The notes: generated by a model from the letters alone, not told the origin. A stretch of DNA of 64,000 nucleotides from Candidatus Heimdallarchaeum aukensis (GCA_021513695.1 CP084166.1:2048001-2112000); one strand, 5' to 3'; numbered from the stretch's first letter, positions 1 to 48,663 are shown. Numbers and translations: made by a program.

Positions 1-1
1 T

Positions 2-3000
2 TTAGTAGGTGTAGGAGAGAGTACAGAGCAGTATATTGCTACAATCAGCAGAGAAGAAAAAACGATTACTTATTCCGCTATTCTAAGTTCAGCAGAGGAG
101 CAAGAACAGTGGAAATATTTCTATATTAGCCTTTATCAGCTTGCGAGACATATTCCTAAAGAATTACTTGTAGATAATTATTCAAATGGAAATAAAGAGG
201 TTGATCTATTAGATGAAAATTACCCTGTTTCTGGTATAATTTCTGATGCAAAAATGGTCGTTAATTATGAAGGTTCATATGTGGAAAAAATCATCCAATT
301 AGAAAAAGGAGCAAATCAAAATCTATACATTTCTGACTTGAAATCTACAATTACTAACATCCATAGCGCATATCCTTACGAAAATGCTTTATCTTCTTTG
401 CCTGAGGAAATAAAATGGAAAAAATATGATGTTCCATTTGATGGGTATATTCCTCTTGATAATGTCTATCTTGATGATTTTGACGGTAGTTCGTATTATA
501 TCTACGATGTAGTGGTTTATGTTGATGCTTCCACTTATTCTAAAGTACATTTAACAGTTGAAACTGAGGGATCTTTTGTTCTTTCTAACCGCTACTCTAT
601 AATATTACAAAAGATGGGTTTTTCAAACGAAGTTGTTTCTACAGTCTTTAGCGCACAACAAGGATATACTCCCTTGTATCTTCACGTTGTTTTTCCAAAA
701 ACAGCTTTTAATCAGAATATACGCATTCAATACATCTCCAATGGAGGAGTGGCTATAAGTGCTGAAAACAATAGAGAAGGAGATGCCATATCAGAGTGGT
801 TGATCTCTACTCCTTTCTATTCGGAAAAAAATGAGGACACCGTTGATTATCTTAATTTTATTTCACAAGTTACACCTATGGAAGGAGAGCGATTCGAAAA
901 AAGAGTAGTAGATTCAGAAGGATTTACCCACACAGAAACAATAGAATTTTCTGAATTCACTTTTCCTGGATTTTGTCCTATCTTAGACTTTGTTCCTCAT
1001 GCTGTTCCTTCAGGTTATTCTGTTATTCTCACTACTACGCTCGATTTCGCCAAAAGTTTGAACACTTCCTTAGTTCTACTTCTAAACAAAGAAAGTGGCA
1101 TAACAATACAATCCTTACTTTGGGATGAGACTCCACTTCTTTACATCAATGAAGGAGTATTTAACGAAATTGACTCCGATTTGGAAAATGGTATGATTAC
1201 TATACCTTTGAATAGTGAAGGGTTAACTGTCAACAGTCTCTTTTCTCCTAAAGAAAACAACCCTAATGAGTATGGTTTCATAGAAAACGACCCTGATTAT
1301 AACTTTCATTTTTCATCTTCTGACCCTTATAGTATAAAAACATCCTCTGTTAACCCTGATTCTGTTATTTTGAACAACAAAGGCATTCACAGAATAGTTA
1401 TCCAATTAACCTTTCCTTCTCCTTATAATACAGATTTTGGAATATATTTGGAAAATGTAGATGATAGCGTGCGAACTGTTTTATCTCCCTCAGATAAAGC
1501 AATAGACTTTCATGCAATCGCACAGAAGAACTTTATTCAATTTGAAAACGATCTTCATCAACCTCAAACTCTTGCTCAATTAGAGAAAAACGAGAATACT
1601 TTATTTAAATCACGATATTTCAAAGATGACTATGGTCAATACCATTCCTATAGAATTTATAGTCTTGGCTTTTCTGATGAATACACCTTAGATAAAGGAA
1701 AGAAATGGAAAATATATGATGGTGATACTGATGATTCTAACGATGTTATCTATGAAAGTACAGCTCACTACAATTGGAAACATGTAATAGGAAAGATGAA
1801 TTTTGCAATTGTTATAGATGAAGGAACTCCACAAGTTTTGCAATTGCCTTTTAATTTTCTAGTAGGTTACATGGTCTTTTGTGATTGGCTAGATACAAAT
1901 GGAGATGGATTAGAAGATACATGTGCTCCTTATATAGGTCTAGCAGACCCCTTAGATGCTAGTTCTACTTACGATGATGTAAAAAAAGGTGTAGTGTATA
2001 ATACAGAGGAAGAGAAGAAAATAAGTTATGATGTTACTGATGAACAACAAGCAGAACTCAAGAATCTTACTGTACGCCAATCGTTGATATCTTCTCTTTC
2101 AACTACAGTAATTACAAAAACAGAAGAAACCATCCCCTTATCCTACACTTCTGACGAAATAGCTGCTATTCAAAACAATGGATTAACTCTTGATCGTTAT
2201 CTTCATTCTTTAATAGAAAATGACTATTTGACCTACTCTGAAGATATTGCAAGAGTAGAAATAACTATTAGTTCTTCAAATAATAAAGAAATTGACCTTG
2301 CTTATGATTATGATAAAGAAATATTGTTCACCCACAGTGTTGATAATGCTACAGGAGAAGAAGAAAAAATAGTCTATGATTTTAGATATGACTGTTTTTC
2401 TGTCCTCACTCCTGATGCTCTTGCTAACGACAACTACAGAGTAGATTTTTATACTTTTAATAATAAACTAAGTCTCTATGATACCGATTTGTATAAACTT
2501 AAAGAAACGCCTAATTCTTACGGATTGTTAGATGATCCACAAACTCTTTCACCTATGGTAGTCTTAGAAAATTATAACTATGAAATAAAAGAAACAGTTA
2601 ATAGTCTTGATTCAAAAGATGAAGAAATTTTAAACAATAGTCCAACAACAATTGTAGACGCTTTTGTTCAAGGATTAAGTCTTTCTCAACTAAGCGTGGA
2701 AATGTATGATGCTGAAATAGAGATGGATTATTACAGTTTAGATCTCTTCTATTCTGTTTTCTTTAATGAATATTTGACTCTACAACAATTCTTCTATTCT
2801 CAAGAAACATTAAATAACAACCAGAATTATCAGTATTATCCTACTGGGACAATCCAATTTGCTAAATGGATTAGTTCAATACTTAACTCCTATATAATCC
2901 AACAATCAGACAAATTATTTGATGAATACCAAAACCGTACTTCTCGATATGATTCAGAGAAAAAAGCTATAGCTGCTATGTCCTTTTTGTTAGACCTTAT

Positions 3001-6000
3001 TATTCCTTATCGCGGATTCAAAACCTACGGTTCGGAACCTAAACCAGAAGAGACTCATCACCCACGTTTCTCTAGTTATGTGGACTTCAAATATAGTCTA
3101 GTTATGTTTTGGGGATTAATCTTAGGTAATAGTGCAGGCTGTGGAATACCTAAAAATTCTGTCTCTCTGTTTAGCGAGAGTGAGAGAACTGGAAAACTCT
3201 TGATGATTGACGAATTATGGGATAAAGCTATTAAACACTGGAACTTGGCAGATAAAAGTAGAATAGATGATCCTAGCGAATATTTGCCCTATACTGACCG
3301 AGCTGTAGTAGACAAAATACTGTTTGACGCCAGAGTAAGAGGAGATGAAGCTATGATCGACTGGATAACAAATGAAGATTATAGTGCTGAGGCTTATTAC
3401 ATGCAACCCTATGGAGTGGATTATTCGATCTATTACTGGTTGAAGGCTTTTACTATTCAACAAGGATATGACCCTTATGCTATCAAGGTTTACACCATTG
3501 AAGAGATGAATAGTCAAGAGAGAGAAGATTTTGACGAAAATTATTTTGTTATAGGCGTTCCTGTTTCCACAATCGAAGACCAATATTTAGAATATAACTG
3601 GTTTGTAAGTCTAGATAAAGAAACACGTGTGCCCACTTCTGCTACATCACAACTAATAGACTTTATCCCTCTTGTATTCGGTCAAAGTTCTAATCCACAT
3701 ATAAGAACAATGATGAAAATAATTAAAAGATTAGGAAATGCAGCAAAAGGAGAAAATTTCGGTTATAATACTTTTAGCATGAGTGAATTCAGCTTAATCG
3801 TTACTTTAGAATTTTTAGTTAATCTTGTAGATATAGGCGCTTTACTTATTGATATCAGAGATGCCTATATAGGAGCTACTCCTTTCATACGCAAAATGTC
3901 GCTCATGCAAATACCAATGGATATACTAGATTTGTTCACTCCAGGACCTTTTTCTCTCGTAGGAAATACAATGAATAAAATTTTCAAATCTATAGTCGGA
4001 GACGTTACCTTAGAAGTAAATAGGATAACAAAAACATTTAATTTACTAGATATTGTACAAAATTTCCCAAAAGGAGAGTGGAAAAGCATTGCTCGAGCAG
4101 CAGGAAAATCAGAACTAATGATCTGGATAGTTGGAGCAGCACAAGTGACTTACCGTTTCTCTAAACTAGCCAATCAATTCTATCAATGGTTCTTCTTCCT
4201 CCCGCAAAAGATTTTCATGAGTAGTTTACAAATAACTTTAGGGTCATTCATGATATTTGCCTCTAAAATGATTTATGCCATCAGAAGAATGGATATCGAA
4301 GAAGCAATGTTGTTAAACATTAAAGCGCAAAAATACTTCAACCAAGGACTAGATGATACCGCTAAAATGACAAGAGCTATATTAAGCCATCCAAAAATGC
4401 TAGCAAGATTTGGAACTGAAGAACTTATAGAACGAGCAAATATAGTAGCAAAATATTACATGAACATTATTATAAAGAAAGTAATGGAATTGGAAGCAAC
4501 ATCAAAAGCAATACTAGAATCGGTTGAAAAGTCACGCTTCTATGTTATGATGGCCTTAAGATATGCTACACATATGTACATGAACACCCCAGGAGGAGTA
4601 GGTATACACTTCTCTCCCAATTTAATTGATAATGAGAAAGAAACTGAAGGAATAAGACATTTCAACACCGTGGATAATATTTTGCCAAAATTAGAATATG
4701 AAATAGCAATGTATTACTGGAAGCATGAATATCTAGCGGATGATGAAAAAATAAAAGAGTATAATAGTGAAAAATTCAATTTCAGAGATGTAGAAAGCGC
4801 AAAAATACATATAACTATAGCTTTTTCATCTATTGCTGCAATACATTCGACACCAGAATCATTCCAAAGATATAAAGAACTACTAGAATACACAGATAAG
4901 AGGTTAATAGAAATAAAAAATGAAAAGGGTGAAAATCTAGAGTATACACCTATATGGTGGATTTTACATTTGCCTGTTGATCCCTCGCTACAAAAACTAG
5001 CCCTTAGCCACATATTTGATGAATCACCTGCAGTTTCACTGCTTCTAAAAGTTCTAATGGTAGAGAAAGGTCTTAACGAAGACTTATTAGAAAATAATAT
5101 CGACGATATAGATGAATACAATAAAGAAGTTCATTCCATTTTAGATCAAATTTTATCTTCTTCCCCCCTAAATATAAGTCATAAAGTCTTTATCCTTGAA
5201 AAAGATGAAAAAGGGAATCATATCTGGAAAGCAAGAATTTTAGATTTGTTAGGGCAATCTGAAGGATCATTAACTAAGTTAAGGACACGAGATGAATATA
5301 TTAAGTGGTCTGTAATCGGTAGAACAGGAATAGACTTGTTAGGCCTTTTCGGAAGTGAAGAATTAAAAAACTATTTTCCCAAAGGAGTAAGAAATGCTTT
5401 AACTGCTAGAAATGATCAAACTTCAATAATCTATGAGCTTATATGTATGGGATTATTAGATTTTAGATTTTATACAGATGATAAAAATGTAAAGGATCAA
5501 TTAAAAATTGATTTTCCAGAGCATGACTTTGAAAAAGAACCCAGTATTAGCATTGCTGAATTAGCTAAAAAATATAGTAAATATGATATTCTAGAATTAT
5601 TTGAAAAAAGTAATTTTATTAGACAGACTCTTATAAGTAATGGAGTAGACGGATTAATACACAGTACAAAAATAGGAAAGTCTCTTTATTCTGTTAAAGA
5701 TTCAACGGGAATATTCAATAAAGCTAATTCAAAAAATATTTTATACTCTGTAGCAGCTGAAAATGCATATATAGGTCATGGAAGTGTTATTTATTATTAT
5801 GATAAGCTACAAGGTGATATTATCACGGATATAGATAATAAATTGATATACAATGCTAGATATTATGATCCTACAGCTTCAAAATCACCTAAACCTTTTG
5901 TTCCAGGCGATGCAATATTACTCTATGATTCCAATGTAAATCGTTATCTGTTTTTAAGAACTAATTTTCCTGAGGACACTATGCTAAATCAAAATCAGAA

Positions 6001-8641
6001 ACTAGATGAATATAGTGGTTTTAAAAGAGAAATTAACGTGTTTTGGTTTCAAATAAACAAAGATACAAATGAGGGAGAGATAGTTTATGATACATTAGAA
6101 CACTATTGTTATGAAAATGAAAAACTGAAGGAAGGAATAAAAGTTGTTGGAACGGAGGATATTTTGCAAGAGGTAGATAAGTTTCATCCAAAGAGAAATA
6201 AAATAAGAAGTAGTCAACCTATAATATCAATAGAAGCAAAGCAAAATGGAGGGAACATAGATTACGTTGTCTCAATGGATGAACAACTTCCTTTATTTAG
6301 GTTTATAGGTGGAGATTATTCAACTGCAACAGAAAAAGACATCAATTTTGCTAGTTTTCTTTACCCAAGAAAACATTCCAACGATATTGTTTTCGGATTG
6401 CAAGATGATAACTTAGATTTTATCGATGAAAAGGGTTTATGGCCTATCCATATGGGTTTAAGCCCAGGAAGGTTTACATACAACGTGCAAAACATATATT
6501 TAGATGAGATTAATTCAGCAAAAGCGTTATTGGATAAATTAGATGAATTAGATAACTTGCCTGTAGTAGAAGTTAAAACAAAGGATAATGAATATATAAC
6601 TCGACCAGCAACAGTTCAGGAAGTAAATCAACAGAGAGTATATGAGTTAATTAGATGGTACTCTACAAGTCAAGTGTATACTTATTATGTGTCTAGTTTA
6701 AATAAAGAAAATAAAGCATTTTTGTGCAGAGCATATCTAGATGATTGGAATGCAGCTAAATCGTTAGGTGAAATCATAGAAATAGCAGAAGATACTAATG
6801 GAAATCTATACCAGAAATATGGTTATGAGAATAAACAAGAATATCTAACCTTTAGAATGAATGTTATTCAAACAATAATAAACGAACAAGAACAGTTCTA
6901 TAAATACAAGTTTAAAGATGAAAGTGATTTAACAAAAGAAGAAAAGTTGGTAATATTTCTAAAAGAACAAAAAGAATTTTTTGAAAGATTACATAATGAC
7001 GCTGCTAAAATAGAGGCATTTCAAGAACCATTTTTTTCAAACTTGAGACTAGACATTAAAGAAGTCGATACATATAATGTACTTAATTATCGCAGTTTAG
7101 AATCGTCAATTGAATTACTTTTATTAAATAGATTTGACTCGTATAATAAGATACACTTATTCGAAGGAGATGTACCTTTTTCAAGAAACCCGATGAAATT
7201 CGGTTTCGATAATGTAATTGTCCAAATAGGTACGAGAGCATTCATAAACAAGGTCAAAGAAGAGGGAATATTAGATTTTGATGAAGATAAAAATTCAGTA
7301 TTAGAACTAGCTAATAAAGTATTTAAAAGAAAAACAGTTATAAAACCATTAATCCGCGGACCAATAAAAGCAAAATCAATTGCTTTTCTCCAACATGAAG
7401 AAACAATGGCTAAACTGAACAATTATAAAACATTGCAAAAAATATCCAAAGAAGAAATAAGGCTCTGGAAACTTTACAACAAAAAATTAGATAATGAAAA
7501 AGGCCATTTGACTGTAGAGCAACTATACGAAATAGAAGAAGAGTTCAACAATATAAATGGAAAAAATATAGTAGGAAAACAAGGAGCAGGGATGACAGTA
7601 ATAGAAGATGGAAACACATATGTTGTAAAAATATACAGTCTCATCAGTGATTTAAGATATAATAACAAAATTCATGCAGGTAGTGAGGCAAATAAGTATG
7701 ATATTGCAGAAAGAGTGTTGGGACTAGCACAACACATAAAGTACGTAGCAAAGGAAGGAAGAATATACATTAATTATGCAATGGCAAACATTCTTTATCT
7801 GATAAAAACACTAACAAACGGTAAAATGGAAATAGATGACGTCCAGAATCTAAGGGACCTGGGAAATCCAAAGGAATTAGAAGCTATACTAGTAAATAAT
7901 TTAGGGGAAGAAAGAACAAAAGAAATACTAAATATTTTAGAAGAAGTAACCATAAGAACGAAAAGAAAAATAAAACAAGGAAAAGATTATTCCATAGAAA
8001 ATATAGAAAAAGGACAATCGTTGGCTTTTCAAATTGGATATGTGGATCTGAAAAATATAACCCCTGAGGTAAGAGGAAAATTAAGGCTACAAGGGATGTT
8101 ATTGAGAGAAATCTTGATGTTACTGGATATAATATATGGACTATATTATACAGGAAGAAATTATATGAAACGCCTAGATATTAATTTAGCGCAAACAACA
8201 GTAATTTTCGAAAAAACAACGGAAGAAGGCAAAACAATACTAAAATTAAAAGACGTAAAAACAAGCACAGAACAAGAAATGAATGGAGAGTTCATATCAT
8301 CACTGAACGATTTCGACCAAAAAACAGCATCAATAATAGAAAAACTGGCTGAAACTAAATATTCATCAGTATTTGGACCAGAATTTATGACTAGAGAACA
8401 ATTAAGAAAATTGGTAGATGAAATAATAGAAGAATATGAGAGTATACTAAAATTGAAAATAAGAAAATTCAATGAAATATTAACTCAAGACGATATGGAA
8501 GTAGAACTAGTAGCAAAGAAATTCAAAATAGAAGAATTGCTAAAAATGCTAACACCTAAAGGATTATGGTCAATGTACGAGCAAAAGAAAAGAAATAATG
8601 AAAAAAGAGGACAAACAAAAATAACAGACTTCCTAATTTAA
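2..8641 (+). CDS. giant hypothetical membrane-associated protein, 5'-partial (ORF open to window edge)
   Basis: One uninterrupted frame. Frame 2 has no stop between nt 2 and the first ATG at 254, so the ORF continues upstream of the window. Hydrophobic helices are encoded at about 3780-4290 (FSLIVTLEFLVNLVDIGALLIDI, ELMIWIVGAAQV, LQITLGSFMIFASKMIYAI). I recognise no catalytic motif. Confidence 0.75.
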   Translation, partial: LVGVGESTEQYIATISREEKTITYSAILSSAEEQEQWKYFYISLYQLARHIPKELLVDNYSNGNKEVDLLDENYPVSGIISDAKMVVNYEGSYVEKIIQLEKGANQNLYISDLKSTITNIHSAYPYENALSSLPEEIKWKKYDVPFDGYIPLDNVYLDDFDGSSYYIYDVVVYVDASTYSKVHLTVETEGSFVLSNRYSIILQKMGFSNEVVSTVFSAQQGYTPLYLHVVFPKTAFNQNIRIQYISNGGVAISAENNREGDAISEWLISTPFYSEKNEDTVDYLNFISQVTPMEGERFEKRVVDSEGFTHTETIEFSEFTFPGFCPILDFVPHAVPSGYSVILTTTLDFAKSLNTSLVLLLNKESGITIQSLLWDETPLLYINEGVFNEIDSDLENGMITIPLNSEGLTVNSLFSPKENNPNEYGFIENDPDYNFHFSSSDPYSIKTSSVNPDSVILNNKGIHRIVIQLTFPSPYNTDFGIYLENVDDSVRTVLSPSDKAIDFHAIAQKNFIQFENDLHQPQTLAQLEKNENTLFKSRYFKDDYGQYHSYRIYSLGFSDEYTLDKGKKWKIYDGDTDDSNDVIYESTAHYNWKHVIGKMNFAIVIDEGTPQVLQLPFNFLVGYMVFCDWLDTNGDGLEDTCAPYIGLADPLDASSTYDDVKKGVVYNTEEEKKISYDVTDEQQAELKNLTVRQSLISSLSTTVITKTEETIPLSYTSDEIAAIQNNGLTLDRYLHSLIENDYLTYSEDIARVEITISSSNNKEIDLAYDYDKEILFTHSVDNATGEEEKIVYDFRYDCFSVLTPDALANDNYRVDFYTFNNKLSLYDTDLYKLKETPNSYGLLDDPQTLSPMVVLENYNYEIKETVNSLDSKDEEILNNSPTTIVDAFVQGLSLSQLSVEMYDAEIEMDYYSLDLFYSVFFNEYLTLQQFFYSQETLNNNQNYQYYPTGTIQFAKWISSILNSYIIQQSDKLFDEYQNRTSRYDSEKKAIAAMSFLLDLIIPYRGFKTYGSEPKPEETHHPRFSSYVDFKYSLVMFWGLILGNSAGCGIPKNSVSLFSESERTGKLLMIDELWDKAIKHWNLADKSRIDDPSEYLPYTDRAVVDKILFDARVRGDEAMIDWITNEDYSAEAYYMQPYGVDYSIYYWLKAFTIQQGYDPYAIKVYTIEEMNSQEREDFDENYFVIGVPVSTIEDQYLEYNWFVSLDKETRVPTSATSQLIDFIPLVFGQSSNPHIRTMMKIIKRLGNAAKGENFGYNTFSMSEFSLIVTLEFLVNLVDIGALLIDIRDAYIGATPFIRKMSLMQIPMDILDLFTPGPFSLVGNTMNKIFKSIVGDVTLEVNRITKTFNLLDIVQNFPKGEWKSIARAAGKSELMIWIVGAAQVTYRFSKLANQFYQWFFFLPQKIFMSSLQITLGSFMIFASKMIYAIRRMDIEEAMLLNIKAQKYFNQGLDDTAKMTRAILSHPKMLARFGTEELIERANIVAKYYMNIIIKKVMELEATSKAILESVEKSRFYVMMALRYATHMYMNTPGGVGIHFSPNLIDNEKETEGIRHFNTVDNILPKLEYEIAMYYWKHEYLADDEKIKEYNSEKFNFRDVESAKIHITIAFSSIAAIHSTPESFQRYKELLEYTDKRLIEIKNEKGENLEYTPIWWILHLPVDPSLQKLALSHIFDESPAVSLLLKVLMVEKGLNEDLLENNIDDIDEYNKEVHSILDQILSSSPLNISHKVFILEKDEKGNHIWKARILDLLGQSEGSLTKLRTRDEYIKWSVIGRTGIDLLGLFGSEELKNYFPKGVRNALTARNDQTSIIYELICMGLLDFRFYTDDKNVKDQLKIDFPEHDFEKEPSISIAELAKKYSKYDILELFEKSNFIRQTLISNGVDGLIHSTKIGKSLYSVKDSTGIFNKANSKNILYSVAAENAYIGHGSVIYYYDKLQGDIITDIDNKLIYNARYYDPTASKSPKPFVPGDAILLYDSNVNRYLFLRTNFPEDTMLNQNQKLDEYSGFKREINVFWFQINKDTNEGEIVYDTLEHYCYENEKLKEGIKVVGTEDILQEVDKFHPKRNKIRSSQPIISIEAKQNGGNIDYVVSMDEQLPLFRFIGGDYSTATEKDINFASFLYPRKHSNDIVFGLQDDNLDFIDEKGLWPIHMGLSPGRFTYNVQNIYLDEINSAKALLDKLDELDNLPVVEVKTKDNEYITRPATVQEVNQQRVYELIRWYSTSQVYTYYVSSLNKENKAFLCRAYLDDWNAAKSLGEIIEIAEDTNGNLYQKYGYENKQEYLTFRMNVIQTIINEQEQFYKYKFKDESDLTKEEKLVIFLKEQKEFFERLHNDAAKIEAFQEPFFSNLRLDIKEVDTYNVLNYRSLESSIELLLLNRFDSYNKIHLFEGDVPFSRNPMKFGFDNVIVQIGTRAFINKVKEEGILDFDEDKNSVLELANKVFKRKTVIKPLIRGPIKAKSIAFLQHEETMAKLNNYKTLQKISKEEIRLWKLYNKKLDNEKGHLTVEQLYEIEEEFNNINGKNIVGKQGAGMTVIEDGNTYVVKIYSLISDLRYNNKIHAGSEANKYDIAERVLGLAQHIKYVAKEGRIYINYAMANILYLIKTLTNGKMEIDDVQNLRDLGNPKELEAILVNNLGEERTKEILNILEEVTIRTKRKIKQGKDYSIENIEKGQSLAFQIGYVDLKNITPEVRGKLRLQGMLLREILMLLDIIYGLYYTGRNYMKRLDINLAQTTVIFEKTTEEGKTILKLKDVKTSTEQEMNGEFISSLNDFDQKTASIIEKLAETKYSSVFGPEFMTREQLRKLVDEIIEEYESILKLKIRKFNEILTQDDMEVELVAKKFKIEELLKMLTPKGLWSMYEQKKRNNEKRGQTKITDFLI

Positions 8642-8664: not shown

Positions 8665-8768
8665 TGGTGCGTCAACCGGGAATTGAACCCGGGCCGTCGA
8701 ATCTCTTCTTGAGGCTTCTAGACGCCATATAATGGAAGTCCGACGTACTACCACTATACTATTGACGC
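8665..8768 (-). tRNA. tRNA-Gly(UCC) with ~30-nt intron at the canonical 37/38 site, CCA encoded
   Basis: Hand-folded cloverleaf. Acceptor GCGTCAA/TTGACGC, D arm GTAT-AGTGGTA-GTAC, anticodon stem TCGGA/TTCGA with loop CT-TCC-A, T arm CCGGG-TTCAATT-CCCGG, then ACCA. Length is 104 nt, so about 30 nt is inserted after position 37. Confidence 0.85.
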
Positions 8769-8984
8769 TTTCTTTGTTTTTTTCTTTCTATTCTTTTGAT
8801 TACCGATTTCTTTTTAACTTTTATGGATTTTGTCTTTTTCTTTTTTTTCTTCTTTCTCTTCTTTTTTTTATTTTTAATTTATGTTTCTCTTCTTTTTTTT
8901 ATTTGTTTAAAATCAATATATTTAAGTAACGTTGTTTTGTTTCTGACTTAAGATATACTAACATTATTTAGAGGAGAATATATT

Positions 8985-19999: not shown

Positions 20000-20084
20000 G
20001 CGGGGATTGCCGAGCGGTCAAAGGCGCTGGACTTAGGATCCAGTCCTTAGTGGTTCGAGAGTTCGAATCTCTCTCCCCGCACCA
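20000..20084 (+). tRNA. tRNA-Leu(UAG), CCA encoded; integration target
   Basis: GCGGGGA-TT-GCCGAGCGGTCAAAGGC-G-CTGGA-CTTAGGA-TCCAG, then a long variable arm, then GAGAG-TTCGAAT-CTCTC-TCCCCGC-ACCA. Confidence 0.92.
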
Positions 20085-20095
20085 TTTCTTCTTTT
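20057..20095. repeat. attL core (39 bp)
   Basis: GAGAGTTCGAATCTCTCTCCCCGCACCATTTCTTCTTTT, identical to 22887-22925. Confidence 0.9.
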
Positions 20096-20098
20096 ATC

Positions 20099-20106
20099 TT
20101 TATATA
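20099..20106 (+). promoter_or_regulatory. TATA-box-like element upstream of the element ORF
   Basis: TTTATATA is centred about 26 nt upstream of ATG 20128, a spacing compatible with a leaderless archaeal transcript. Confidence 0.35.
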
Positions 20107-20127
20107 TTTCCTTTTCCTTTTTTCTTT

Positions 20128-22881
20128 ATGGTTGCTTTTTCTCCTACTTTTTCTGTTATCGATTCTTTCTCTTTTCTTCACGACCCTCAATTTGTTTTTT
20201 TACTTCAGACTTTTATTGATTCTTCCCCTGACTTTTTTTCGTTTCTTTCTCTTCTTTCTTCCTCTTCTCCCTCTTCTCTTTCTTCTTTTGTAAGGGACAT
20301 TTTTTTACTTATTTCTTTTGATGATCCTTTTTCTCTTTCTTCTTCCTCTTTTCATTTTTTTGATTCTCATTTTAATTGGAAATCTTTTCTTTCCTTTTTC
20401 CTTGATTCTTTTTCTTCCCGTAAATTTTCTCTTTGCAATTTTTCTTTATTTTATGCTCATTTTTCTTTTTTGCATTTTTCTATTCCTAATTTTTTATCTG
20501 ATTTTGCATTCTTTTTTTTATCTGATTTAGATTTTAATTTTTTATCTTCTTCCTTTTTCAGTTCTTTTTTCTCTTTTGAATCTTTTTATGATTTTTTCTT
20601 TTCTTATTTTGATTCTTTTTTACCTTCCTATCGTCTCCTTATGCGTCATCGTTTTAATTCTTCTCCTAACCATTTTTTTCCTCCTTTTCTTCCATTCCTT
20701 CGTTCTGAAGAGGTTAGCTCTTATTTTAAGTCCTTTCTGTATATTTGTGGCTTTGATAAATCTGTTTTCGGTTTTGGTTCTTCTCGTGCTAAGGTTGATC
20801 CTCGTCAATTTGCTGAGTCTTTTCAAACTTCTTGGATTAAATTGCACTTTCATTTAGACAAAATGCGTTTTCCTTTTACTCTTTCTTCTACTCGTGTTCT
20901 TTCTCTTTATCATCCTGGTCGTTATGTTTCTTCTGTTAATCCAAGTAATGGTTTTGACGATCTAATTGTTTTTTCTTCCTCCTCTTCCATTCCATCCTCT
21001 CTTTCCTCTTCTCCTTCTTCTCTTTCTTCCTTTTCTTCTCCCGTTTCTCCCTGCTTTACTATTTGTGTTATTGAGCAAAAAATGAACCATTTAGACGTTA
21101 AGCGTTTAGATAGTCCTTCTTCCTCTTCCGATTTTACGCGTTATCTCTCTTACCTTGCTAAAACCCACTTAAATCCCTTTATTCTTCTTTTACAAGCGTT
21201 TCATTATCCTGAAAAAGATAGACTTAAATTGTCCTCTCTATTGTATGATCGCTCTTTAACTTATTCTAACTCTGTTGGATTAGACTTTTTACGTAAAATC
21301 ACGAATGGTGATTTTCTATCTTCTCTTAAACTAATTGAACCTTCTTTAGATGATCAAACTATCAATAATATTCTTCGGGGTTCTATTATCCAGCACCAGC
21401 TTATTTCTTTGATTAAGTCTGGTTTTTGTTTTAAATTGGCTTTTGTTGATGGTTATTATACCGTTAAAAAGAGGTATCCTGGTGACCTGGTCTCTTCTGT
21501 TATATGTTATTATAATTGTTTAAATGGTTCTTGCGTTGAAATCCATTTTCCTTCGTCGCTATTTGAAATAAGAATAGATTCTAGGGGTCATTTTCTTGTA
21601 CCTCAGTACTCTGAATCTCAGATTTCTTCATATGCAAAGACAGAAAACGAGCTTATGGCTTATCAGGAACTCAACAATCTATTTAACACTTTACGGAGCG
21701 ATATGATTTTTAATGTAAATATTTTGTCTCTCCCTCCTTTTGAAATTGTAAAAAAAGTTAATTTATATCAAAAAAAGATTCTCTTTTTTTTACTTAATTC
21801 TAGACGAATTGCTGATTTAAGTATCTTTAACGATGGTTTTGTTAAATCTTATTTGGAAATTTTTACTTTACCAAAAACAGCTCATCGGATCAAGAGATAC
21901 TTATCCTATATACACGATTCACTTTCAATTTTTCCCTATTCGTTTTATCAGCAGTGGAATGCTCCTTTTGGCGATAGACTAAAAAACATGTTCTCTGGTT
22001 CTTTTAGTCGTGATACCCTTCTTTGTAAGCGTTTTAAAGAAAAGCTTCTTGAGTTTATTTTATCCTCTGATTATGATTTTTCCGAAATGCCTTTAGAATT
22101 TATTGAAACTAAGTTACGTCATTCACCTGATATTCAAATTTTTTTAGATTGCTATTTTAGTCAGTTTGCTCTTTATCCTGACGGTAATTTTTTACGGTTT
22201 AAACATAATAAAATTTCTTTGAAAGCTCTTGCTTTTTGGGATGAGACCAACAATCAATGGTTTTCGCTTAACAAGAAGCGTTTTTACATTTTATTGAACT
22301 TTGAAGATATTTTAGCTAATATAAGTAAGGAAGTGTCTTTTAAAGTAACAAAAAATCTTTTGCTTTTTCCTATTAAATTTAGTTTAAATAAACGCACAGG
22401 GCAGTTATCAGCTCTATTTAATACTGATTTTACTAACACTGAAGTAAACAGAATTTGGGTTGCATATCTTAAAAAATTGAAAGGAATGGATCTTTCCTTT
22501 GAGATTTTGTCCTCTTTTTCTTATGGTCAACGAAATAAGCGGAGTGGAATTGATTTATTCTATAACTGTAACCAAAAAAAGCTTTCAATATTGTTGGCAA
22601 TATTATCAGAAACTATTAAGTTGTGGAGTTTGGTTAAAGAACTTGTCCTTAACGTTGTTTATAAAAAATTAGATTCTGAAATGGATAAAATTATCTTATC
22701 TACCAAAGGAGATAAAATTGTTCTCAATGGCAAGCAATACAAAATGGTCTTACTCAATTACAATGAAAGTAATTCAAGGGTTAGGTGGTCGTTTAAACAC
22801 TACCTATTTCCTGTTGAAGGAACAATTATTGATGATTTTGTTAAAAAATGTTATTCTATTTATACTGATTTATTTTCTTAG
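20128..22881 (+). CDS. orphan protein of the tRNA-Leu element (about 917 aa; N-terminal third F/S/L-rich low complexity)
   Basis: First ATG after the tRNA in the long frame. The track start 19978 reads through the tRNA gene and is rejected. The stop lies 5 nt before attR. The C-terminal ~600 aa has ordinary composition. I recognise no recombinase or Rep motif. Confidence 0.55.
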   Translation: MVAFSPTFSVIDSFSFLHDPQFVFLLQTFIDSSPDFFSFLSLLSSSSPSSLSSFVRDIFLLISFDDPFSLSSSSFHFFDSHFNWKSFLSFFLDSFSSRKFSLCNFSLFYAHFSFLHFSIPNFLSDFAFFFLSDLDFNFLSSSFFSSFFSFESFYDFFFSYFDSFLPSYRLLMRHRFNSSPNHFFPPFLPFLRSEEVSSYFKSFLYICGFDKSVFGFGSSRAKVDPRQFAESFQTSWIKLHFHLDKMRFPFTLSSTRVLSLYHPGRYVSSVNPSNGFDDLIVFSSSSSIPSSLSSSPSSLSSFSSPVSPCFTICVIEQKMNHLDVKRLDSPSSSSDFTRYLSYLAKTHLNPFILLLQAFHYPEKDRLKLSSLLYDRSLTYSNSVGLDFLRKITNGDFLSSLKLIEPSLDDQTINNILRGSIIQHQLISLIKSGFCFKLAFVDGYYTVKKRYPGDLVSSVICYYNCLNGSCVEIHFPSSLFEIRIDSRGHFLVPQYSESQISSYAKTENELMAYQELNNLFNTLRSDMIFNVNILSLPPFEIVKKVNLYQKKILFFLLNSRRIADLSIFNDGFVKSYLEIFTLPKTAHRIKRYLSYIHDSLSIFPYSFYQQWNAPFGDRLKNMFSGSFSRDTLLCKRFKEKLLEFILSSDYDFSEMPLEFIETKLRHSPDIQIFLDCYFSQFALYPDGNFLRFKHNKISLKALAFWDETNNQWFSLNKKRFYILLNFEDILANISKEVSFKVTKNLLLFPIKFSLNKRTGQLSALFNTDFTNTEVNRIWVAYLKKLKGMDLSFEILSSFSYGQRNKRSGIDLFYNCNQKKLSILLAILSETIKLWSLVKELVLNVVYKKLDSEMDKIILSTKGDKIVLNGKQYKMVLLNYNESNSRVRWSFKHYLFPVEGTIIDDFVKKCYSIYTDLFS

Positions 22882-22886
22882 GCTTG

Positions 22887-22925
22887 GAGAGTTCGAATCT
22901 CTCTCCCCGCACCATTTCTTCTTTT
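22887..22925. repeat. attR core (39 bp)
   Basis: Identical copy of 20057-20095. Confidence 0.9.
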
Positions 22926-22968
22926 CTTTTGTTTTCTTTTTCGTTTTGTTTCGTTTTGTTTATTTTTT

Positions 22969-23010
22969 GATAGTGATAGTGATAGTTACACCTTTTTTGA
23001 TAGTGATAGA
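22969..23010. repeat. GATAGT hexamer array (3 copies, 12-nt spacer, 2 copies)
   Basis: TTTTTTGATAGTGATAGTGATAGTtacaccTTTTTTGATAGTGATAGA, read directly from the sequence. Confidence 0.85.
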
Positions 23011-31607: not shown

Positions 31608-31733
31608 GGGGCATTAGCTCAGCTTGGTTTAGAGCATCCGGCTCATAATTTGCGTCCTAGAAACAGTCTAATTCATTAAGAACGCAAAAGAGCGACCGGA
31701 TGGTCATCGGTTCAAATCCGATATGCCCCACCA
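31608..31733 (+). tRNA. tRNA(CAU), elongator Met or Ile2, with ~49-nt canonical intron, CCA encoded
   Basis: Acceptor GGGGCAT/ATGCCCC, D arm GCTC-AGCTTGGTTTA-GAGC, anticodon stem TCCGG/CCGGA with loop CT-CAT-A then the insert, T arm ATCGG-TTCAAAT-CCGAT, then ACCA. Confidence 0.85.
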
Positions 31734-44557: not shown

Positions 44558-45052
44558 ATGGAACATGTTTATCTCATTTATGACCACTCTGTAAGAGAAT
44601 TTAAAGAACCTGCAGATCAAAAAAAGTTCAAATCAATAACTCAAGGCTCTCCCGATGAAATAAGTACAAGTTTAGATAGTGTGGGCGTTGATGGTTTGTT
44701 AATATTTAACAGAGAAAGAAATGAATGGAACTTAATATTCGCAAAAAGCTTAGGATTGGTTGCTCAAAGAACGGCAAGAAGGCAAGCAGATACAATAAGC
44801 AGATCAGGATTTTTGTTATCTTCAGGAGAACGGGTGGGGATACGTAGTAGATTACAGCAATTAACAGAAGATAATATAGGGGATTTACATAAAACTGTGC
44901 AGCAAAAATATATTGTTTCTGATTTAGTTGGTCATGTGGGAGATTCAAGAAGTGAACGTTTTCCAGCTAAAGTCTATGCAACAAAAGAATTAGAAGAAAA
45001 AAGAAATGAGGTTGAGAAAGAGCCAAAACAAACTACAAAAGAAAATATATAA
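44558..45052 (+). CDS. hypothetical protein
   Basis: ORF with an AGGTG-like sequence before the ATG. No family recognised. Confidence 0.45.
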   Translation: MEHVYLIYDHSVREFKEPADQKKFKSITQGSPDEISTSLDSVGVDGLLIFNRERNEWNLIFAKSLGLVAQRTARRQADTISRSGFLLSSGERVGIRSRLQQLTEDNIGDLHKTVQQKYIVSDLVGHVGDSRSERFPAKVYATKELEEKRNEVEKEPKQTTKENI

Positions 45053-45323
45053 GACGGATAATGTAGAGTAAACACATTGATTACAACCTTTATTTTTTTG
45101 CTTTAAGGCTCCTATCCTATAGCTAAATTCAGTAAAATTAAGAAACCACAGTAATTTCTTCATTGTAAGACTGTTTTAGCATTGAAACTTTTTATTGGTT
45201 TTTCTTTTAATAGATGCCTGTAATAGCATCTGTCCCTTAAGATTTATATATAGTTTAAAAAATAAGATAATCTGTTGAGACACATTTATTAACTAGAACG
45301 AACTTACATTTTTTGGTGTTTAA

Positions 45324-46220
45324 ATGTATCAAACACAAGTAAATCCTTTTGAATTATCAAAAAGAAAGATATCTGAAAGTTCAGGAAAAATAGCTAAATT
45401 GCTTATAGCTGTTGTTGCGCTATTGTTTGTACTAATAATCCTTGTGATGATAATGCTAGCTATAGCAGGAGGAAGTTCTGTTGTTATTGACCCAAGTAAT
45501 CCTTATGCGGCAGTTGGTGCAATGTTTAGTTCCTTTATTGTTCTAGGTATCTTTATTCTTTTAATTGCTTTAGCCTTTATTGTCATTCAAATAATGGTGC
45601 TAGTACAATATTACAAACTTGGACAAGGCTTTTCAGAAGTTGCTAATATGGACCCCTCCCTGCCAAATGCGAAAAATATTAGTTTTGGAATCTATGGCTA
45701 CATCATGGGTTATGTTTTAGGCCTTATTATTCCTGGAACCTTTGGAAAAATAATGGCACTTTTAGGTACTTTCTCATTAGCTGCAGGTTTCTACTTCATT
45801 TATGAAACGTTTGAAGATTTTAGAAAACAAGGTAGATTTGGTAAACCCGCATCTAAAAAATTGTTTATTGCTGTGGCTTTTACACTAATAGGCAATATAA
45901 TGAACTTTGTTAACAGCATTGCTATGATCGGTGTTGGCGGTTTCTTTGGTTTAATTGGTTTTATTCTTTTGATAATTGGATTAAAAGATCTAGAGCGAGA
46001 TATTCTGTTGGTTACACCAACGGAAACAGTTCCTACACAACCACCCACACAAACCCCCTATCAAGCTCCAACTTCTGTACCCACTTCTCCAGCTCCTGAA
46101 CAATCTAATCAATCACCACAGACGCAAGACGCAACCCAAGTAAAGTTTTGTCCCAACTGTGGAACAAAAAATGAATTACAAGATAAGTTTTGCATATCTT
46201 GTGGAACAAAACTAGATTAA
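45324..46220 (+). CDS. membrane protein with P/T/Q-rich linker and C-terminal zinc ribbon
   Basis: About 6 TM, then TPTETVPTQPPTQTPYQAPTSVPTSPAPEQ, then CPNCGTKNELQDKFCISCGTKL. Confidence 0.65.
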   Translation: MYQTQVNPFELSKRKISESSGKIAKLLIAVVALLFVLIILVMIMLAIAGGSSVVIDPSNPYAAVGAMFSSFIVLGIFILLIALAFIVIQIMVLVQYYKLGQGFSEVANMDPSLPNAKNISFGIYGYIMGYVLGLIIPGTFGKIMALLGTFSLAAGFYFIYETFEDFRKQGRFGKPASKKLFIAVAFTLIGNIMNFVNSIAMIGVGGFFGLIGFILLIIGLKDLERDILLVTPTETVPTQPPTQTPYQAPTSVPTSPAPEQSNQSPQTQDATQVKFCPNCGTKNELQDKFCISCGTKLD

Positions 46221-46280
46221 GTTCCCATCTTTTATTTCTTTTTTTAAAAATAGTTGCTTTTTTAACTTCATTGATTGCTC

Positions 46281-46319
46281 GATAGTGATAGTGCTGATAG
46301 TGATAGTGATAGTGATAGC
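46281..46319. repeat. GATAGT hexamer array (2 + 4 copies)
   Basis: GATAGTGATAGTgctGATAGTGATAGTGATAGTGATAGC, lying between two convergent genes. Confidence 0.85.
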
Positions 46320-46467
46320 ACTTTTTAAACCAAAATCGAAATGTTTTGAGAAAAAAGTTATTTAAATTAATTTAAGGTTAGTCCTAAAAAAACATACTGA
46401 CAGCTTTTTCGATTATCAACCAAGGATAGAATTTTCTAAATGGGGTGTTTTCTTTTTTTATGGTTTT

Positions 46468-47064
46468 TTATTCTGTATTGCTTTCGCCCATGGCCGCACT
46501 TAAAATTTCTACTTCCTGAGCTACGGACTTGATTTTAGAAGCGATAACTCTCTTCTTTTCTATTTCTTCTTGATCTTTAAGCTCTGGGAGATACTTTCCT
46601 ATAGCCGCAGTTGTTCGTATTCTTACACTATAAGGAAAAATGGTTTTATTACGACTTTTAAGTTCAGCAAGGATGCCCACGGTCCAACGTTCATTCTCTT
46701 CATCTTTGTGAATGTGAAATTTTGTTACATCAACATCACACAGGTTAAGAATTGATGAAAGAAAAGTTTCTATATCCTCATTATTAAATTGACTAATATC
46801 TAAAATCTCTCCTTTTTCAAATTCTTCTTCATGAAAATTGTATATCTGTTTTTTATCATGTATCTGTGAAAAGCGTTTATCTCTCTCGGTTCTTTTTTTA
46901 GCTGGTTGCTTTTTTCCTGTTTCATACTTATTTCTGTTACGAGCGACCCAAACACTAACAGCTTTTCCTGAACCAAGACCTATAATGGGAGCGATTTCTG
47001 AGTATGTATATCCTTGTTTTTTTAGCTCTTCTATCTTATTCCATCGCTCTTGACCTTGTAACAT
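46468..47064 (-). CDS. helix-turn-helix DNA-binding protein, family unknown
   Basis: The N-terminal KKQGYTYSEIAPIIGLGSGKAVSVWVARNR is a typical HTH. The rest is unassigned. Confidence 0.6.
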   Translation of the reverse strand: MLQGQERWNKIEELKKQGYTYSEIAPIIGLGSGKAVSVWVARNRNKYETGKKQPAKKRTERDKRFSQIHDKKQIYNFHEEEFEKGEILDISQFNNEDIETFLSSILNLCDVDVTKFHIHKDEENERWTVGILAELKSRNKTIFPYSVRIRTTAAIGKYLPELKDQEEIEKKRVIASKIKSVAQEVEILSAAMGESNTE

Positions 47065-47110
47065 TATTTTTCATCTTTTTTGGTTTTTTTATTTAGACTA
47101 CCATTCAATT

Positions 47111-47137
47111 ACTATCATTTTTTGATAGTGCTATCAC
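47111..47137. promoter_or_regulatory. operator-like inverted repeats of the TGATAG(T) motif upstream of the HTH gene
   Basis: ACTATCA-ttttt-TGATAGT-g-CTATCAC lies 47-73 nt upstream of the start codon at 47064. Confidence 0.4.
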
Positions 47138-47626
47138 TTTCATATAACATTTTACTTGCAACTATAAAAATTTTTACTAGTTAATAAAATCCTTGCGCAT
47201 AGTATTAGGCTTTTTGTCGGAATATTTTATATATGTCTAGCTAAAGCTACCTAGGCTGCTTCTAAGTTTACATATACTATGACTGTTTGATATTATCCCT
47301 TAAATTCAAGATTTGAATGTTAGTTAAAATGAAATTCTAAATCTTAGTTAATAACGTTGTATTATAAATAGACAAAATAAGCAAAAATAGACCTTTATAA
47401 TCTATATTTTAACCAATTAATCTAAATTCGTTTTGTTATACGTTTAATTATATTATTCCAAGTTTTCTATAACGCCTATTTCTCGATGAAAGTTAAATAT
47501 TAAACGTAAAAGGACTTTTATTATTAGGCTTTTAATGTAGACTTTTTACTTTTTTGAAAGGAGAAATAATTAAAAAGATGTTACAAACCTATTCTCTATT
47601 AGGAGGTAATTTACATACAGGTAAGT

Positions 47627-48622
47627 TTGGCTATCTTATCTGGTGGTGATTCGAAGCGTTATAAGCAGAAAGGTAAACTTATAGATAAAGCATTAATGGA
47701 AGTAAATACCAAGCCTCTGCTTTTTAAAATAGTTGAAGATGGTCTTAATAATTACGACAATGTTATTGTATCCCTGAACAACAATAAAAGGAAAAAAAAG
47801 TATGAAAGTGTATTAAAACCCCTACTGAAAAGCGATAATGTTGAGTTTGTTGAAGATGATAAAGAAATTAATTTTATTGGAGTAGGAAAGGGAATTGCTT
47901 CTGTACTATTGAAATTATTGCCAAAAACTTCAATCCAATTCATTCCTTGTGATCGCCCTTACCTTGATGTGAAATTACTAAGACAGTTAGAGACAGTAAA
48001 AGAGGGAGTAACAATACTTATTTATCAAAGTGGATTGATTGAGCCACTGCTTGCTCTATATGCTGAAAACTATGCATTTCCTCCACTCTTTGTTTTTTCT
48101 TTTGATCTAAGCAGAGCTGACGTGTTTATCCGCTTAGCTCCTCGAATCAGGCTTTATAATGCAACAGAAATAATTGAGATGAATGATCTCAGATCTAGTT
48201 TTTTCTTAAATGTAAACACTCCAAGGTTAACAGCTTCAGACCTCTCTTTAGAAAAAGAGAAATATTTCTTACCAAAATCTAAAATTGTGGAAAGAAAAAA
48301 TCTTGAACCTCTTGATAGTATCGATTTAGATGGTGATCCTACAGAGAGAATTCACCATTTGATTGAAAGAGAACACTTTTTTTTAGCATTCTTAGTAACA
48401 AAATACCTATTTCGAAGTCAAGTTTTTGACTTTGACCTCTTTTCTTACTATGTCAACTTAACACTAAAGTCAGAGTACGAATATTGGATGGAGAAAAATA
48501 TACCTTTCTTAGGATTACATGCGCTGCAAGATTTATCACATACTTTTCAGAATAATGTGTCTAATGAAATTGACAATGAAATAAAGACTCTAAAAGAAAA
48601 AATAGGTATAAAAAAGAAATAA
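47627..48622 (+). CDS. MobA-like nucleotidyltransferase domain protein (molybdenum cofactor guanylyltransferase-like) with C-terminal extension
   Basis: The N-terminal AILSGGDSKRYK..DKALMEVNTKPLL resembles the MobA/NTP_transf_3 start. The gene is adjacent to a molybdopterin formate dehydrogenase. TTG start. Confidence 0.55.
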   Translation: MAILSGGDSKRYKQKGKLIDKALMEVNTKPLLFKIVEDGLNNYDNVIVSLNNNKRKKKYESVLKPLLKSDNVEFVEDDKEINFIGVGKGIASVLLKLLPKTSIQFIPCDRPYLDVKLLRQLETVKEGVTILIYQSGLIEPLLALYAENYAFPPLFVFSFDLSRADVFIRLAPRIRLYNATEIIEMNDLRSSFFLNVNTPRLTASDLSLEKEKYFLPKSKIVERKNLEPLDSIDLDGDPTERIHHLIEREHFFLAFLVTKYLFRSQVFDFDLFSYYVNLTLKSEYEYWMEKNIPFLGLHALQDLSHTFQNNVSNEIDNEIKTLKEKIGIKKK

Positions 48623-48663
48623 AGACTCTAAAAGAAAAAATAGGTATAAAAAAGAAATAAAGA
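48581..48663. repeat. 38-bp tandem duplication (2 copies plus 7 nt) spanning a stop codon
   Basis: ATAAAGACTCTAAAAGAAAAAATAGGTATAAAAAAGAA occurs at 48581-48618 and again at 48619-48656, followed by ATAAAGA. Confidence 0.85.

Follow-up and report, generated by a model that had tools for sequence, protein, structure and literature searches.

Archaeal repressors such as MDR1 of Archaeoglobus fulgidus and LrpA and Phr of Pyrococcus furiosus bind operators that cover the transcription start, just downstream of the TATA box; this placement is classical for archaeal repressors acting through a block of polymerase recruitment. Multi-operator looping repressors are represented by LacI, which uses O1 together with O2 inside lacZ, and by GalR and DeoR. 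Centromere-binding autoregulators and iteron systems, exemplified by ParR-parC, omega/ParG and Rep-iteron, form another group, and the Fur box, TGATAAT-N-ATTATCA, can be read as a set of overlapping GATAAT hexamers. Asgard archaea are hard to manipulate, and to our knowledge very few pairs of a transcription factor and its operator are known for them.

Here we describe a gene in a 64-kb stretch (the window) of the chromosome of the Asgard archaeon Candidatus Heimdallarchaeum aukensis. We consider it likely that this gene encodes a chromosomal transcription factor restricted to the Heimdallarchaeaceae, which represses its own promoter and has an auxiliary distal site. A preliminary description of the window had proposed an autoregulated DNA-binding module bracketed by its own motif, and comparison with related genomes lends weight to this proposal through conserved promoter sites, an array 3′ of the gene and the corresponding layout in a sister clade. 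The functional kind is familiar; neither the protein family nor the distal hexamer array nor a motif cluster embedded in coding sequence in the sister clade is described in the libraries and papers searched. The genome paper on these organisms does not mention the locus.

The gene (46468..47064, minus strand) encodes a two-domain protein of 198 aa that is identical to UJG40036.1 (K9W45_09315). The open reading frame reported initially is confirmed, and the helix-turn-helix (HTH) assignment is supported by a structure model. Built from a five-sequence alignment, the AF2 model contains a confident three-helix HTH at residues 4-47 (pLDDT 73-90), of the kind expected for an autoregulated HTH transcription factor and apparently similar to the DNA-binding domains of LuxR, sigma region 4 and AraC. 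Residues 51-94 form a disordered basic linker, and the C-terminal domain (residues 95-194) is modelled with low confidence (pLDDT 35-62) as a helix, three strands and a long helix. In this domain C109, H117 and E122 are invariant and might conceivably bind a metal or ligand; an NTF2-like or SnoaL-like fold, an alpha+beta cone in which a curved sheet makes a ligand pocket, was considered for it. The homology and structure search that had been recommended therefore returned an HTH fold, but no curated family in Pfam, NCBIfam or PHROGs passed its threshold. The best Pfam match was Terminase_5 (14.8 bits, cut-off 20.3), and HTH_28 scored 12.8 bits against a cut-off of 25; the Pfam search gave no match to GerE (PF00196), and no match to Pfam FUR for the protein of either clade. 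Compared with LuxR/FixJ/GerE proteins and sigma-70 region 4 (PF00196), the protein thus stays below any Pfam or NCBIfam threshold, and it differs from the LuxR/FixJ/GerE group in its N-terminal HTH, in having no receiver or autoinducer domain and in its archaeal host.

Among 1.84 billion representative proteins, a profile search retrieved only about five protein-distinct full-length relatives. These comprise the cluster of H. aukensis and H. endolithica, P0002 (70% identity) and P0003 (63% identity), together referred to as clade 1, and a sister clade (clade 2) of P0004 and P0005, which are 33-38% identical to the window protein and match its two-domain architecture. The remaining matches have only the N-terminal ~50 residues in common, and a search with the HTH domain only against a 5.8 G protein set gave no match at E up to 0.01.

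The upstream region of the gene holds the evidence for an operator. When the window was aligned with two more distant Heimdallarchaeaceae, L001 and L003, two islands only were exactly conserved, TAGTAAAAATTTTTATA and TGATAGCACTATCA(A). Both are also present in L128, in H. endolithica (L130) and in a second MAG (L132), giving six loci with four protein-distinct promoters. The orthologs in this footprint share 63-91% protein identity and the surrounding upstream sequence has diverged; a shared 10-mer appeared in 0 of 2000 shuffles of the upstream regions. The first island, a 17-mer at 47163..47179 (minus strand), is identical at all six loci between diverged flanks, occurs once in the window and includes the 12-nt palindrome TAAAAATTTTTA. 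From the archaeal promoter consensus, we take it to be the BRE/TATA element of the HTH gene. The second island contains the primary candidate operator, the 14-bp inverted repeat TGATAGC·ACTATCA at 47123..47136, in which two 7-nt half-sites TGATAGY directly adjoin each other. In the window, 26 nt separate it from the TATA-like element upstream; this spacing is fixed at 26-27 nt in all orthologous promoters, and the repeat is the sole perfect copy within the 64 kb. Near-palindromes with two to three mismatches at 32.2-32.8 kb, considered as other operators in the window, fall within an eIF-2B-like gene and were rejected as apparent chance occurrences.

In gene orientation, positions 47111-47137 read TGATAGCACTATCA-aaaaa-TGATAGT, 47-73 nt upstream of the ATG, and the alternating inverted TGATAG half-sites noted there before are present as described. 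Direct half-sites follow in the 5′ leader (47097..47117, minus strand): TGATAGT at 47111-47117 and, 7 nt beyond it, the one-mismatch copy TGGTAGT at 47097-47103, whose position is occupied by a perfect TGATAGT in L128 and by TGATAGC in H. endolithica. Between one and three direct TGATAG(T) copies follow the palindrome in each lineage, with two in L001 and three in L003, where they extend right up to the ATG. All six loci therefore carry a conserved probable operator of inverted and/or direct repeats in the gene's own promoter, and the motif, rather than being absent from orthologous promoters, is exactly conserved there. Because its loop would be 0-2 nt, the palindrome could form no meaningful RNA hairpin, which favours a role at the DNA level. 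Moreover, since the 17-mer is read as a putative BRE/TATA element, the palindrome is predicted to sit about where transcription should start; the start itself would be expected ~22-27 nt beyond TTTTTATA, which would place it at the palindrome or just ahead of it.

The sister clade repeats this layout with a different half-site. Promoters of P0004 (L005-L007) consist of a TATA element, TGATAA(C/T)·GTTATCA, TGATAAC-N3-GTTATCA, three direct TGATAAC copies and the ATG, and that of P0005 (L008) follows the same plan with three palindromes; overall, two to three direct TGATAAC copies precede the ATG in clade 2. The half-site is thus TGATAGY in clade 1 and TGATAAC in clade 2. No TGATAG was found in the clade-2 promoters and no GATAG cluster in the clade-2 loci, and the clade-1 loci contain no GATAAC clusters. 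Between the two clades, the recognition helix differs by K34T/L, S37R, A41H/S and R44K, so that operator and protein co-vary. That protein and site change together is the best reason to suppose that the HTH protein binds its own promoter, and it is a comparison of two clades, given the approximately five protein-distinct full-length members. Neither palindrome was found in the literature searched. At the level of the motif only, the clade-2 sites TGATAAT·GTTATCA and TGATAAC·GTTATCA and their hexamer-array logic resemble the Fur box; however, their spacing is 7-0-7 or 7-3-7 and not 7-1-7 as in Fur, and the protein has no Fur domain.

A downstream cluster is present in clade 2 as well; in it, three TGATAACGTTATCA palindromes alternate with TGATAAC. 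The clade-2 copies of the gene are tandem paralogs beside giant genes, and the cluster is located within the coding linker of a tandem paralog with the same HTH (peptide ...NIDNVITQNDNANDNVITKNDNANDNVII...), a neat dual use of sequence. The motif is retained in a deletion variant (L129) and in the divergent L008 paralog. Since both clades possess a downstream cluster, the bracket of operator, gene and distal cluster recurs in the family.

These features suggest a mechanism close to that of the archaeal repressors. The N-terminal three-helix HTH would recognise the 7-nt half-site TGATAGY, and a dimer or higher oligomer would assemble on TGATAGC·ACTATCA over the predicted start as well as on the direct half-sites of the leader. 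The subunits would probably be joined through the C-terminal domain and its long terminal helix, which is a guess because this part of the model is of low confidence. Occupancy at the start would then block recruitment of RNA polymerase once TBP and TFB are bound, as with similar archaeal repressors. The putative inverted-repeat operator ~25 nt downstream of BRE/TATA in the regulator's own promoter, the predicted block of polymerase recruitment and the negative autoregulation would all match MDR1, LrpA and Phr. In contrast, those proteins belong to unrelated families (DtxR, Lrp/AsnC and winged-helix), whereas here a LuxR/sigma-r4-like three-helix HTH is combined with an unassigned C-terminal domain; unlike them, the window gene also has direct half-sites in its leader and a distal array beyond the gene.

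The locus represents a putative protein-operator pair that emerged from comparative genomics alone. Such a pair would offer a natural specificity switch, TGATAGY versus TGATAAC, for which a small set of recognition-helix residues are candidates, as well as a defined promoter geometry and an unusual auxiliary array. As the system is small, with a protein of 198 aa and a site of 14 bp, it is directly testable in vitro, and it could become a model system for how an Asgard promoter is repressed.

The distal 3′ array (46281..46319, plus strand) reads GATAGT GATAGT GC TGATAGT GATAGT GATAGT GATAGC on the plus strand, corresponding to (ACTATC)4-AGC-(ACTATC)2 on the gene strand. It had been placed just past the 3′ end of the gene; the array itself is found at these positions, but it is not immediately adjacent: it lies 149-187 nt past the HTH stop, and on its other side the stop of the convergent gene 45324..46220 is 60 nt away. 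The oligo-T tracts which flank it could be candidate terminators of both convergent genes. Tandem repeats beside the gene of the binding protein are conserved in L128, L130 and L132 and are shorter in L001. The 4+2 arrangement is retained in H. endolithica and L128, where the array is 80-87% identical to that of the window, compared with 20-70% for the flanks and 54-75% for 4-fold degenerate sites. In L001, AGCACTATCACTATC is the only block in common with the window on the 3′ side; the Zn-ribbon gene is inverted there and hence co-directional with the HTH gene, and the position and orientation of the array relative to the HTH gene are unchanged. L003 has an overlapping downstream gene and no 3′ array, so that the array is dispensable for the HTH gene. 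Two other origins of the array were considered and discarded: a relic of a lost second HTH paralog, of which tblastn and translation in three frames gave no sign, with stops in all frames, and a coding sequence, for which the (Asp-Ser)n and (Ile-Val)n frames give ORFs of 17-26 aa that are not conserved relative to a 35-aa call in L001.

In the proposed mechanism, the (ACTATC)n array, ~830 bp away, would serve the HTH protein as an auxiliary site and would most likely raise local occupancy or form a loop that encloses the gene. This part of the model is held with low confidence, because L003 lacks the array and hexamer tracts are common microsatellites. Furthermore, with a period of 6 bp, successive half-sites face different sides of the helix, which is awkward for simple cooperative binding. 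A promoter operator with a putative auxiliary site hundreds of bp downstream would be comparable to LacI, GalR and DeoR, and the clade-2 auxiliary cluster lies in a coding region like lac O2. Unlike in those systems, the candidate auxiliary site is a tandem hexamer array that encloses the regulator's own gene together with the operator, and looping is hypothetical here.

Across the window, at least three GATAG copies within ~20 nt occur in three places, at 22969-23009, 46281-46318 and 47112-47135, compared with a mean of 0.2 such clusters in shuffled sequences. The heptamer TGATAGT is found 24 times (10.4 expected), a number reached in no shuffle, and its excess is due entirely to the three clusters. 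In the related loci L001, L003, L128, L130 and L132, GATAG clusters are limited to the HTH promoter and the 3′ side of the gene. The first of the three places in the window is a second hexamer array (22968..23009, plus strand) with the structure (TGATAG)3T-tacacctttttt-GATAGTGATAG, in which 12 nt separate (TGATAG)3T from GATAGTGATAG. This array, which is conserved in H. endolithica, is located between another pair of convergent genes, 43 nt beyond a displaced 3′ fragment of tRNA-Leu that marks an insert of ~2.8 kb. By motif identity alone, it may be a further binding site of the HTH protein. Being near no promoter, it is unexplained by a simple autorepressor model. This second array had been overlooked in the preliminary description.

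Among the alternatives to an autorepressor with an auxiliary site, the most probable holds that only the promoter palindrome and the leader half-sites are functional and that both arrays, the one 3′ of the gene and the one at 22968, are passive, slippage-prone microsatellites. We consider this unlikely. (TGATAG)3 occurs in well over 100 unrelated bacterial genomes among the matches listed, of which the H. endolithica tRNA-Leu locus was the only informative one, the array beside tRNA-Leu has three units in H. aukensis and four in H. endolithica, one unit of the 3′ array is mutated in H. endolithica, and L003 does without it; both arrays, moreover, lie in convergent, probably untranscribed intergenic DNA. 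Given the variable unit number and the frequency of such microsatellites, part of the array conservation is possibly passive. However, the array unit is exactly the operator half-site, and three clade-1 lineages keep an array or cluster on the 3′ side of the gene, between flanks that have diverged. The downstream cluster of clade 2 is built from that clade's own half-site and includes full palindromes, which hexamer slippage could not produce. In addition, only two arrays were found in the 64 kb and ~60 kb of related loci, one of them adjoining the HTH gene.

The palindrome might instead be read by another factor, with the HTH gene as a mere target, or the arrays might be architectural sites for a nucleoid protein. 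The HTH gene has no linkage to the array at 22968, the assignment of binding to the HTH protein is an inference, and the 17-mer and a block at 47196..47252 are conserved as well as the palindrome; because of these two elements, other factors probably act on the HTH promoter. This block, TTCCGACAAAAAGCC ... CTAGCTAAAG, lies 20-75 nt upstream of the TATA-like element, is conserved in the window, H. endolithica and L001 and not in L003, and could be the site of a second regulator or the start of a divergent transcript. We nevertheless regard a different binder of the palindrome as improbable. The change from TGATAGY to TGATAAC falls exactly between the protein clades and is accompanied by changes in the recognition helix, and the clade-2 sites lie within a tandem paralog whose recognition helix is of the same type. 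To invoke a separate factor that changed in parallel would be less parsimonious, and in all related loci the motif clusters at the HTH gene only.

A broader role can also be imagined, in which the HTH protein reads TGATAG arrays that are dispersed over Heimdallarchaeum chromosomes as marks of convergent gene boundaries, polymerises on them and bridges them as a boundary, roadblock or organising factor. We see it as distinctly improbable. If it were true, the sister clade would use the same logic in the coding linkers of its tandem paralogs, and genes of such readers would thus carry their own binding arrays within their ORFs.

Returning to an autorepressor encoded in the chromosome, its gene neighbourhood is shared among relatives. 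The order of the FdhA/NuoF cluster, MobA-like gene, spacer, HTH gene, Zn-ribbon membrane protein, 164-aa protein, 747-aa protein and alpha/beta hydrolase recurs in H. endolithica and in L132; L001 and L003 share it apart from local rearrangements, so that synteny from the FdhA/NuoF cluster to the alpha/beta-hydrolase gene extends over five assemblies. The rearrangements near the HTH gene are the Zn-ribbon inversion and an insertion of GNAT and 149-aa genes in L001 and the move of a block in L003. The region at 44.5-47.6 kb, whose possible absence from relatives was to be checked, is therefore conserved and syntenic including the spacer. The k-mer analysis suggested for detecting foreign origin likewise gave typical tetranucleotide usage at 44-48 kb (z -0.5 to +0.6), compared with a z of 3.5 for the tRNA-Leu insert in the same window. 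As already remarked in the preliminary description, no Rep, ParA or integrase gene is nearby, and neither is a ParM gene; we also found no relatives in IMG/VR, PLSDB or INPHARED/phage records by tblastn or pattern scans, and no flanking att or terminal repeats around the locus. Short direct-repeat arrays do adjoin the gene of a presumed autoregulating binder, as in ParR-parC, omega/ParG and Rep-iteron systems, and direct repeats are thus the one feature of a partition or iteron module seen here; unlike those systems, the locus has neither a partner NTPase or Rep nor residence on a mobile element, being chromosomal and syntenic with no mobile-element signature. The view of the locus as a relic of a plasmid or virus, whose iteron- or centromere-type cassette became stranded in the chromosome or was domesticated there, can draw on this resemblance, on the rearranged gene order around the HTH gene, on the clade-2 tandem paralogs beside giant genes and on marginal matches of the HTH to terminase and transposase HTH profiles, but in view of the synteny, the typical composition and the missing mobile relatives, partner genes and repeats it is very improbable. 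The derivation from a plasmid or virus and the iteron analogy offered earlier are hence given up, which removes a false lead.

Between the divergent HTH and MobA-like genes lies an AT-rich spacer of 562 bp (47065..47626), in agreement with the ~560 bp first described as free of ORFs of at least 60 aa; the longest ORF touching it has 34 aa. Spacers of equal length are present in H. endolithica and L132. Compared with H. endolithica, the 150 nt adjoining MobA, which are taken to be the promoter and leader of the MobA-like gene, are 83-100% identical and the 130 nt adjoining HTH 87-97% identical, and the well-conserved part on the HTH side spans ~200 nt including the block at 47196-47252. The middle is AT-rich and variable, with 33-80% identity and indels. 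A non-coding RNA in the spacer or the 3′ region was rejected, as there was no Rfam match at E up to 1 and the spacer middle is poorly conserved; so was a pseudogene, since tblastn with the GNAT and 149-aa proteins, which occupy the same position in L001, found nothing in the window. The spacer is ordinary divergent-promoter DNA.

The neighbouring genes at 44558-46220, previously regarded as orphans, both have orthologs in the Heimdallarchaeaceae, with 76-79% and 42% identity, and one of them carries a Pfam zinc-ribbon domain. Together with this Zn-ribbon membrane protein, the neighbours comprise the 164-aa and 747-aa proteins, which are lineage-specific, the MobA-like NTP transferase and FdhA. 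The window as a whole contains intron-containing tRNAs and has a GC content of ~32%, as fits an archaeal chromosome.

Two further features mark the promoter of the HTH gene. A conserved block, TTCCGACAAAAAGCC ... CTAGCTAAAG (47196-47252), lies 20-75 nt upstream of its TATA-like 17-mer and is present in H. endolithica and in the related locus L001 and absent from the related locus L003, and within the 17-mer lies the palindrome TAAAAATTTTTA. Block and palindrome could together indicate that transcription also starts divergently here, or that a second regulator binds. In the HTH protein (gene at 46468-47064), Cys109, His117 and Glu122 of the C-terminal domain are invariant in both clades, which makes them candidates for binding a metal or ligand. 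The MobA-like gene and the formate dehydrogenase cluster are always found near the HTH gene, and no TGATAG site was found in the promoters of these genes.

In the sister clade, tandem paralogs with the same HTH carry a putative operator cluster of TGATAACGTTATCA / TGATAAC within the coding linker, where its translation yields NDNVIT/NDNAN peptide repeats. This arrangement was seen in L005 (8644-9879, with the cluster at 8884-8961), in L008 (1514-1747), which has three tandem paralogs, and in the deletion variant L129. The HTH pair of L005 is oriented divergently to two tandem giant genes (1-7824; 2219 aa and >2172 aa), neither of which has a Pfam match. Aloposons of Heimdallarchaeum contain giant-gene pairs (PMC8813620), of which the L005 genes are reminiscent. 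Two metagenomic giant proteins, P0006 (1557 aa) and P0014 (914 aa), are built from a related HTH unit repeated many times in tandem, and the same profile matches PDB 8vd6, a designed HTH-repeat protein (‘CAP repeat’).

A second (TGATAG)n array occupies a convergent intergenic region at 22968-23009 and at 5083-5129 of L043, the H. endolithica tRNA-Leu locus, with 3+2 units in H. aukensis versus 4+2 in H. endolithica. It lies just beyond a displaced tRNA-Leu fragment: the 3′ end of tRNA-Leu(tag) (20000-20084) is repeated exactly and directly over 39 nt (20057-20095 = 22887-22925). Between the two copies, within 20000-22925, lies an insert of ~2.8 kb whose tetranucleotide usage is aberrant (z 3.5). 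It includes a CT-rich low-complexity stretch (20.1-21.1 kb) and a single long ORF without family match; no integrase is visible. Since the same tRNA and repeat are separated by only ~1.35 kb in H. endolithica, the insert looks like a decaying integrated element.

Two other tRNA genes, of 101 nt (8668-8768, minus strand) and 123 nt (31608-31730, plus strand), were matched by Rfam and missed by ARAGORN; both presumably contain introns, consistent with an archaeal genome. Finally, a 38-nt unit is repeated perfectly in tandem, in 2.3 copies (48578-48663), across the stop codon that ends the MobA-like gene, at the convergent gap ahead of the FdhA-like gene.
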